Source: Escherichia coli (GTDB lineage: Bacteria; Pseudomonadota; Gammaproteobacteria; Enterobacterales; Enterobacteriaceae). Taken from it: 1,453 nt of DNA. The notes under the pieces were generated by a model, which was not told the DNA's origin, searched no databases, and saw only the letters and a program-made list of their open reading frames with translations. The stretch's first letter is position 1; each line of letters opens with the position of its first letter. Both the position numbers and the translations under genes were made by a program. Shown here piece by piece: positions 1,404-1,453 of the stretch. Where the stretch lies: assembly GCF_003334255.1 (NCBI RefSeq), contig NZ_QOWU01000158.1. One strand, written 5' to 3'.

Positions 1404-1437
1404 CTGGAATATCCCACCAATGCTATAGTGAGTATAT

Positions 1438-1447
1438 AAAGGTCATA
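1438..1447. repeat. Candidate subterminal inverted repeat, left-end copy (reverse complement of 10..19)
   Basis: See partner at 10..19. A 10-bp perfect inverted match is expected roughly once by chance in a window this size, so the support is positional, not statistical. Confidence 0.4.
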
Positions 1448-1453
1448 CCATCT

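Follow-up and report, generated by a model that had tools for sequence, protein, structure and literature searches.

How the transposase gene of a widespread Escherichia coli insertion sequence is transcribed when no promoter precedes it is the question raised by the locus described here, a stretch of 1,453 nucleotides referred to as the window. The original prediction held that no complete sigma-70 promoter lies upstream of the gene, and that expression may depend on flanking host sequence or on circle formation. The gap is real and the family strategy appears to have been rightly named, with the likely solution lying at the opposite end of the window and involving a different -10 hexamer.

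Identity of the element

The window holds the whole of ISEc45, an IS110-family element whose ends are of the IS1111 type, together with 7 nt of target DNA. Loci annotated as ISEc45 match it at up to 100% identity and number in the hundreds, in E. coli chromosomes as well as enterobacterial plasmids, and RefSeq labels the matching loci 'IS110-like element ISEc45 family transposase'. The element is present in 1,467 of 5,426 complete E. coli genomes, and its E. coli copies number roughly 2,000. Occupied and empty sites, together with the RefSeq annotation, place ISEc45 proper at 8..1453 (1446 bp), with the transposase strand being the minus strand.

The transposase gene (259..1392, minus strand) is the sole long open reading frame of the window and encodes 377 aa of a DEDD/RuvC-like, RNA-guided transposase of the IS110 family. 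Pfam domains were found in the order typical of this family, with DEDD_Tnp_IS110 (PF01548, E = 3.6e-15), the DEDD/RuvC-like domain, at the N-terminus and Transposase_20 (PF02371, E = 6.9e-23) at the C-terminus. Furthermore, the NCBIfam model NF033542, 'IS110 family RNA-guided transposase', is matched with 278 bits against a cutoff of 140. A BLASTP alignment with the transposase of ISEc11 was confined to the C-terminal ~128 aa, at 36% identity. ISEc45 is ~16-25% identical to the other elements shown in a supplementary identity table of PMC11187229, where membership of the IS1111 group calls for a transposase whose relationship to the IS1111 one extends over the full length.

Ends of the element and insertion sites

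The boundaries of ISEc45 were obtained directly from three insertion contexts compared with uninterrupted sites. The empty type 1 site in an IS66-family tnpC gene consists of GGAAATAAAAACT followed by TTATGTTC (L004, L005), and the occupied type 1 site (L001) reads AAAAACT-CTTATGACC at one junction and CCATCT-TTATGTTC at the other. The empty site AAAAA-CT-TTATG thus becomes AAAAA-CT-element-CT-TTATG, with a net gain of 1446 bp. The copy in a type 2 IS66-family tnpC gene (L006) is flanked by AAAAATT on the left and ACGTG on the right, and the copy in xylG (L002) also has AAAAATT as its left flank; position 6 is T in these two contexts and differs from the window there. Positions 1..7 of the window, AAAAACT, are target DNA outside the element and form the left half of the preferred target in IS66-family tnpC; they seem constant because ISEc45 is target-specific. 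Insertion is site-specific and without target duplication, and a core dinucleotide is common to element and target, as in the IS110 family. This core is AG at 1453..1452 (CT on the plus strand), and in almost every relative both the left end and the flank open with AG. The insertion in xylG is off-target: compared with K-12 xylG (L003), its right junction (L002, 4440..4470) is one T short, the net gain is 1445 bp instead of 1446 bp, and the target core is TT, not CT, one nucleotide off.

An inverted-repeat search returned the 10-bp repeat TATGACCTTT, and checking of the coordinates placed a perfect 9-10 bp repeat, (T)ATGACCTTT, at 10/11..19 and 1438..1446/1447. On the transposase strand ISEc45 starts with AGATGGT-ATGACCTTT and finishes with AAAGGTCAT-AAG. 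The left end therefore consists of a 7-nt terminal extension, AGATGGT (1447..1453, minus strand), which opens with the AG core, and the left subterminal inverted repeat (1438..1446, minus strand); the right end consists of the right subterminal inverted repeat (11..19, minus strand) and the 3-nt extension AAG (8..10, minus strand), both extensions being delimited by the empty sites. Subterminal inverted repeats of IS1111 elements measure 7-17 bp (PMC11208160) and usually 11-13 bp (PMC11187229); at 9-10 bp the repeat of ISEc45 falls inside the wider range and below the usual one, and is of the IS1111 kind. The IS1111 end rule of 7 (or 6) nt past the left repeat and 3 nt past the right one (PMC11187229) describes the extensions of ISEc45. 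The layout is also that of IS1111, with 251 non-coding nucleotides downstream of the transposase gene against 61 upstream. At 1453 the window edge coincides with the real terminus of ISEc45; therefore the -35 position belonging to TATACT, the -10 named by the original prediction, lies outside the insertion sequence and not merely outside the window.

The window exceeds the element defined by the empty sites by 7 nt, all on the right-end side. This excess may come from an ISEc45 database entry whose boundary takes in target bases, and a boundary problem in IS110-family database entries generally has been raised (PMC11187229).

The transposase gene lies antisense to both annotated target genes, IS66 tnpC and xylG. 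ISEc45 and its relatives in several phyla share one insertion place, the codons for the conserved motif G(R/K)KN(W/F)(L/M)F of IS66-family tnpC, in antisense orientation, as seen at window positions 1..7 and 1452..1453 and in L001, L004, L005, L006, L011, L014, L015 and L018. The ISEc45 clade has the look of a parasite specialised on another family of insertion sequences. In L006 (340..3300), two ISEc45 copies stand in direct tandem with the same 43 bp of IS66 flank after each, so that a unit of the element plus 43 bp was either duplicated or mobilised via an alternative end.

The leader of the integrated element

Reading along the minus strand, the leader contains TATACT (1436..1431), TATAGC (1427..1422) and GATATT (1413..1408), followed by GGAGG (1402..1398) and the ATG (1392..1390). 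TATACT had been proposed as a reasonable -10; it is located as described and matches the consensus at 5/6 positions, and with a 17-bp spacer its -35 would occupy 1459..1454, which is indeed beyond the window edge. TATAGC and GATATT were also placed correctly, but they are not the only other -10-like hexamers as had been held, since TATGAC with an upstream TG at 1450..1442 was missed. Also overlooked was a perfect -35 hexamer, TTGACA at 24..19, on the same strand at the opposite end of the window and directed outward.

No complete sigma-70 promoter upstream of the transposase was detected by either a rule-based or a weight-matrix scan, in agreement with the original prediction. In the whole window and on both strands the rule-based scan found 0 promoter-like sites, compared with 2.0 +/- 1.3 in shuffles, and in the three integrated contexts it found no promoter on the transposase strand. 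The permissive weight matrix, an approximate one built on remembered consensus frequencies and an arbitrary bonus for an upstream TG, gave nothing over ~6 bits in the 61-nt leader alone. A promoter-free stretch of ~50 nt is what chance would give, and the absence matters only since the gene starts there. Promoter prediction with the genomic flanks and on the reconstructed junction had been suggested as a check. When it was run, the integrated contexts yielded none and the best site was the junction, not using TATACT (1431..1436, minus strand), for which no usable -35 is found in either the integrated or the circular form.

A candidate promoter at the circle junction

The outward-facing TTGACA (19..24, minus strand) lies 11 nt from the right end and is the proposed -35 of the junction; the proposed -10 is the TG-extended sequence TGG plus TATGAC (1442..1450, minus strand), in which the hexamer itself occupies 1447..1442. 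When the circle is rebuilt by joining the ends via a single AG core, the sequence reads TTGACA-AAGGTCATAAG up to the joint and AGATGG-TATGAC-CTTTA-TATACT beyond it; the junction expected in an excised circle would be TTGACAAAGGTCATAAG-AG-ATGGTATGACC. Both hexamers and their spacing can be read directly from the rebuilt sequence, in which 17 bp separate a perfect -35 from TATGAC and the last spacer bases, TGG, supply the TG of an extended -10. By the weight matrix, TTGACA-17-TGn-TATGAC scores 12.78 bits, the top sigma-70-like score in the element, as compared with 10.49 bits for the best internal site on the transposase strand of the element; ahead of the gene, no site in any of the three integrated contexts scores above 7.2 bits, and a score of 12.78 bits is attained by only 2.1% of shuffled junctions. 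A circle-junction promoter is marked by two hexamers that come to lie 16-18 bp apart on joining, an outward -35 from the right end and a -10 from the left, and this arrangement was found in the rebuilt ISEc45 junction, with the caveat of a C at -7. With that C, TATGAC fails the promoter rule of the rule-based scan. Position -7 is normally one of the two most conserved positions of the -10 hexamer, and the junction promoter of ISEc45 may be weak on account of the C. In addition, the conservation of TATGAC is inseparable from the needs of recombination because the hexamer sits inside the left inverted repeat.

TATACT is probably not the partner of TTGACA in the junction. The two are 28 bp apart in the ISEc45 circle (27 bp in L011), and the sequence at TATACT's own -35 position in the circle is CATAAG. 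Bringing TTGACA and TATACT to 17-18 bp would need the loss of 10 nt between the repeats, which contradicts the empty-site data and the reported ISEc11 junction.

A BLAST search of 5,426 E. coli genomes with a 400-nt synthetic junction found no direct junction or head-to-tail dimer, the closest matches being tandem copies at least 43 bp apart, and an exact-pattern scan for the junction in metagenome contigs gave 0 matches.

A mechanism is proposed in which the transposase gene of integrated ISEc45 would be preceded only by a promoter-less 61-nt leader, while the -35 half (TTGACA, 24..19) would stand at the far right end, pointing outward. Excision as a circle would join the right and left ends through the common AG core, setting TTGACA 17 bp upstream of the hexamer in TGG-TATGAC (1450..1442). 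RNA polymerase recognizing these hexamers as a hybrid promoter would initiate near element nt 17-21, just beyond the left inverted repeat, and the transcript would run through the transposase gene into the downstream non-coding region presumed to encode the guide RNA, with expression tied to the excised intermediate. Control by circle formation had been called a known strategy in this family, and in fact junction promoters have been reported for ISEc11, ISEc21 and IS621 (PMC11187229, PMC11208160, PMC12288879). For ISEc45 the circle idea is thus supported in silico, and the chance that a circle-junction promoter explains the absent resident promoter of its transposase is put at roughly two in three.

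Conservation of the proposed -35 hexamer and the spacing among relatives

Scanning one genome per species gave 39 loci with relatives at 46-71% protein identity and one further match at 100%, hosted by beta-, gamma- and alpha-proteobacteria, Planctomycetota, Acidobacteria and others. Right ends were identified in 20 elements, the window included, and both ends in 14. TTGAC followed by A, T or G, which matches TTGACA in at least 5/6 positions, was found in 18 of the 20 elements, where it stands 11, 12 or 14 nt from the right end; this count, like the other statistics across relatives, ignores shared ancestry. One exception has TTGATG and the other (L029) is without any -35. The 66 nt further upstream of this TTGAC are unconserved across relatives. 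Most relatives show no mirror image of TTGAC at the left end, and it is therefore not simply part of the inverted repeat. When the junctions were rebuilt, the top-scoring site spanned the junction in 13 of 14, with a spacer of 17 bp in 11 cases and 18 bp in 2, and the integrated versions scored much lower by the weight matrix. In L030, L031 and L022, which have a longer repeat, the -35 lies 3 nt further in, and the -10-like hexamer is found 3 nt nearer the left end, so that the spacing is kept; it reads CATCAT or CATGAT and thus has the canonical -11A and -7T. Judged from these sequences, such a co-shift speaks for a promoter and not for a recognition site alone.

Other arrangements were observed at the ends of some relatives. 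In the Belnapia relative (L024, 1700..1800), the final ~45 bp of the right end, with TTGACT and the repeat, occur twice in tandem. One subgroup, represented by the left ends of L031, L022, L025 and L032, has a longer leader of ~95-100 nt, and in L031 (411..470) a perfect TATAAT is found ~40 nt inside the left end with a poor -35, CTGCCC, 18 bp upstream. From their sequence, some relatives may have a resident promoter.

The downstream non-coding region

IS110-family elements have a structured guide RNA, matching donor as well as target, encoded in one non-coding end. In ISEc45 the 251-nt non-coding region downstream of the transposase gene (8..258, minus strand) is the presumed source of the guide RNA and folds with -69.9 kcal/mol, z = -2.55 against shuffles. 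Its core (120..146, minus strand), resembling a seekRNA or bridge RNA, comprises a hairpin, GGGGCTAAAATCCCC (146..132), of the conserved form GGGG-N7-CCCC, and then ATAAGAGTTT (129..120). The latter duplicates the right-end extension together with the AG core and the initial bases of the flank, and the copied stretch co-varies with the right end in most of the 20 relatives. A seekRNA or bridge RNA would be expected to behave in this way, and the hairpin with ATAAGAGTTT probably makes up one guide segment of such an RNA. A second segment was sought in the non-coding region as a match to the left flank or left end, which yielded only the unconvincing 6-mer GTTCTT, and a search of Rfam gave no family match at E <= 1. 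By analogy with ISEc11 (PMC11187229), we infer that the guide RNA would be co-transcribed with the transposase.

Predicted fold-back at the ribosome-binding site

A further level of control is predicted at translation. The Shine-Dalgarno sequence GGAGG (1402..1398) overlaps AGGTCAT (1400..1394), the two together covering 1394..1402 on the minus strand, and AGGTCAT is complementary to the left inverted repeat, so that AUGACCU of the repeat (1438..1446) can pair in RNA with AGGUCAU at the Shine-Dalgarno. For the stretch from the Shine-Dalgarno to the AUG, the predicted unpaired probability is 0.26 in a read-through transcript versus 0.63 in one starting at element nt 21. Over 19 elements the mean was 0.28 for read-through versus 0.46 (Wilcoxon p ~ 0.001, ignoring relatedness). 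In several relatives the stretch complementary to the repeat varies in step with it: AACGG.TCAT in L019, AAATCG in L029, and CAGGTCAT in L030, L031 and L022. Transcripts entering from the flank would carry AUGACCU, pair with AGGUCAU and thus be poorly translated; junction transcripts would start just past the left repeat and escape the predicted fold-back. It may tentatively be proposed, at odds below even, that the ISEc45 clade has a two-layer lock undescribed for IS1111-type elements, consisting of a split promoter and a copy of the repeat over the ribosome-binding site, and that the same clade is a guide-RNA-directed parasite of the G(R/K)KN(W/F)LF codons of IS66 tnpC.

Alternative sources of transcription and alternative roles of TTGAC

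Transcription might also come from a weak resident promoter at TATACT (1436..1431) without a real -35, read by sigma-70 or sigma-S and giving basal expression instead of or beside the junction promoter. Sigma-S prefers the -10 sequence (C)TATACT and tolerates a poor -35. Besides matching at 5/6 positions, TATACT has the key -11A and -7T, and L011 and L013 retain it with almost unchanged spacing to the left repeat, the latter reading CTATACT; moreover, some basal expression is logically needed for the first circle, and TATACT may supply it. The hexamer is, however, absent from 17 other relatives with an identified left end, it has no upstream TG, and the site scores no more than 7.4 bits by the weight matrix. 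Its -35 position is occupied by ACATAA, CAATAT or ACACGT when the element is integrated in the three contexts, and by CATAAG when it is circular, with matches of only ~1/6 where counted. For ISEc11, moreover, the junction promoter was reported to be the only one found (PMC11187229); a resident promoter at TATACT is accordingly regarded as doubtful. Flank-dependent activation is known for other insertion sequences. The first alternative of the original prediction, read-through or a hybrid promoter with flanking host DNA, draws on the same hexamer, since its -35 position is made of exactly the six flank bases abutting the element and a fortuitous flank could complete the promoter. Against this, insertion is site-specific and none of the three flanks (IS66 type 1, IS66 type 2 and xylG) provides a -35, the transposase is antisense to IS66 tnpC and xylG, and in transcripts bearing the left repeat the ribosome-binding site is predicted to be hidden. 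Thus the sequence and comparative evidence favors the circle half of that proposal, and the flank-driven half, unlikely on the sequences of these contexts, is given a very small chance.

The conserved TTGAC might instead be a recognition element by which the transposase or guide RNA marks the right end, its sigma-70 likeness being a coincidence. It adjoins or overlaps the inverted repeat, and lies within a longer repeat in L018; it is also kept in hosts like Planctomycetota, where the promoter consensus may differ. Coincidence seems improbable, however, when TTGACA is the exact sigma-70 -35 consensus, when TTGAC is specific to the right end in most relatives and its distance from the end shifts with the -10-like hexamer so that the spacer stays at 17-18 bp, and when TTGCAA, spaced as a promoter would require, is also found with the unrelated repeats of ISEc11 and IS4321. 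The roles of TTGAC in recognition and as a -35 are compatible and not mutually exclusive.

Significance

The junction-promoter model would explain how an insertion sequence widespread in E. coli and Klebsiella resides silently, and under it the excised circle is expected to be the main source of both transposase and guide RNA. The boundaries of ISEc45 are corrected to 8..1453, and the hexamers to be mutated or replaced are named, should ISEc45-type recombinases serve as RNA-guided integration tools. ISEc45 is a further example of a known control mechanism and not a new principle, and for this element the mechanism is a prediction. The junction-promoter layout of ISEc11 and IS621 would thereby extend to a distant branch in which an IS110-like transposase is paired with ends like those of IS1111.

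Comparison with known systems

Split promoters and fold-back are both found in insertion sequences of other families. In IS10 and IS50, read-through transcripts are under fold-back inhibition, and the predicted fold-back of ISEc45 follows the same logic, in that an end sequence pairs with the ribosome-binding site of external transcripts. The junction promoters of minicircles in the IS3, IS30 and IS21 families have been reviewed (PMC12288879), and with these ISEc45 would have in common a split promoter active only in the circle. All of these elements, IS10 and IS50 included, differ from ISEc45 in having unrelated DDE transposases and a different transposition chemistry.

Within the IS110 family, ISPpu9 shares the AG dinucleotide with ISEc45, forms circles and recombines at AG. 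It has its own resident promoter, and its circle junctions create no new promoter (PMC12288879); a junction promoter is therefore not universal in the IS110 family, because ISPpu9 circles form without one. In the circle of IS621, a sigma-70 promoter is rebuilt across the RE-LE junction and core and drives the bridge RNA (Durrant et al. 2024, PMC11208160). IS621 resembles ISEc45 in the promoter across the core dinucleotide of the circle, as proposed for ISEc45, the RNA-guided DEDD recombinase and a core dinucleotide common to donor and target. It differs in that its bridge RNA lies in a long left end upstream of the recombinase gene and its repeats are only 2-3 bp, whereas ISEc45 has its long non-coding region downstream and a left end of only 61 nt.

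IS4321/IS5075, of the IS1111 family, have the same end architecture as ISEc45, with a transposase ~26% identical to that of ISEc45 and with the terminal repeat of Tn21-family transposons as target instead of IS66 tnpC. The IS4321 junction rebuilt from L049 reads TTGCAA-17-GATAAT, in which we infer a promoter from the hexamers; as in ISEc45, the first hexamer directly precedes the right repeat and the second lies at the joint.

A close parallel is drawn with ISEc11, for which an active junction promoter, and no other promoter in the element, is reported in the account of Siddiquee et al. 2024 (PMC11187229), with Prosseda et al. 2006 as cited there. A locus at first considered as a candidate ISEc11 (H95/L007, 47% identity) was examined and is not ISEc11; the ISEc11 junction was reconstructed here from a real copy (L009) as TTGCAA-16-TAAAAT. 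The repeats are 9-10 bp in ISEc45 and 13 bp in ISEc11, and the reconstructed -10 of ISEc11, TAAAAT, lies wholly in the 10-nt sequence between the repeats, whereas that proposed for ISEc45 overlaps the left repeat and has the C at -7. In the predicted ISEc45 junction this C would be offset by the perfect -35 and the upstream TG. The two elements are alike in their DEDD transposase, subterminal inverted repeats, left and right extensions of 7 and 3 nt, a non-coding region downstream of the transposase, in ISEc45 the presumed guide-RNA source, and the lack of target duplication. In both, the right repeat is immediately preceded by the -35 hexamer, and the -10 would be contributed by the left end on joining.
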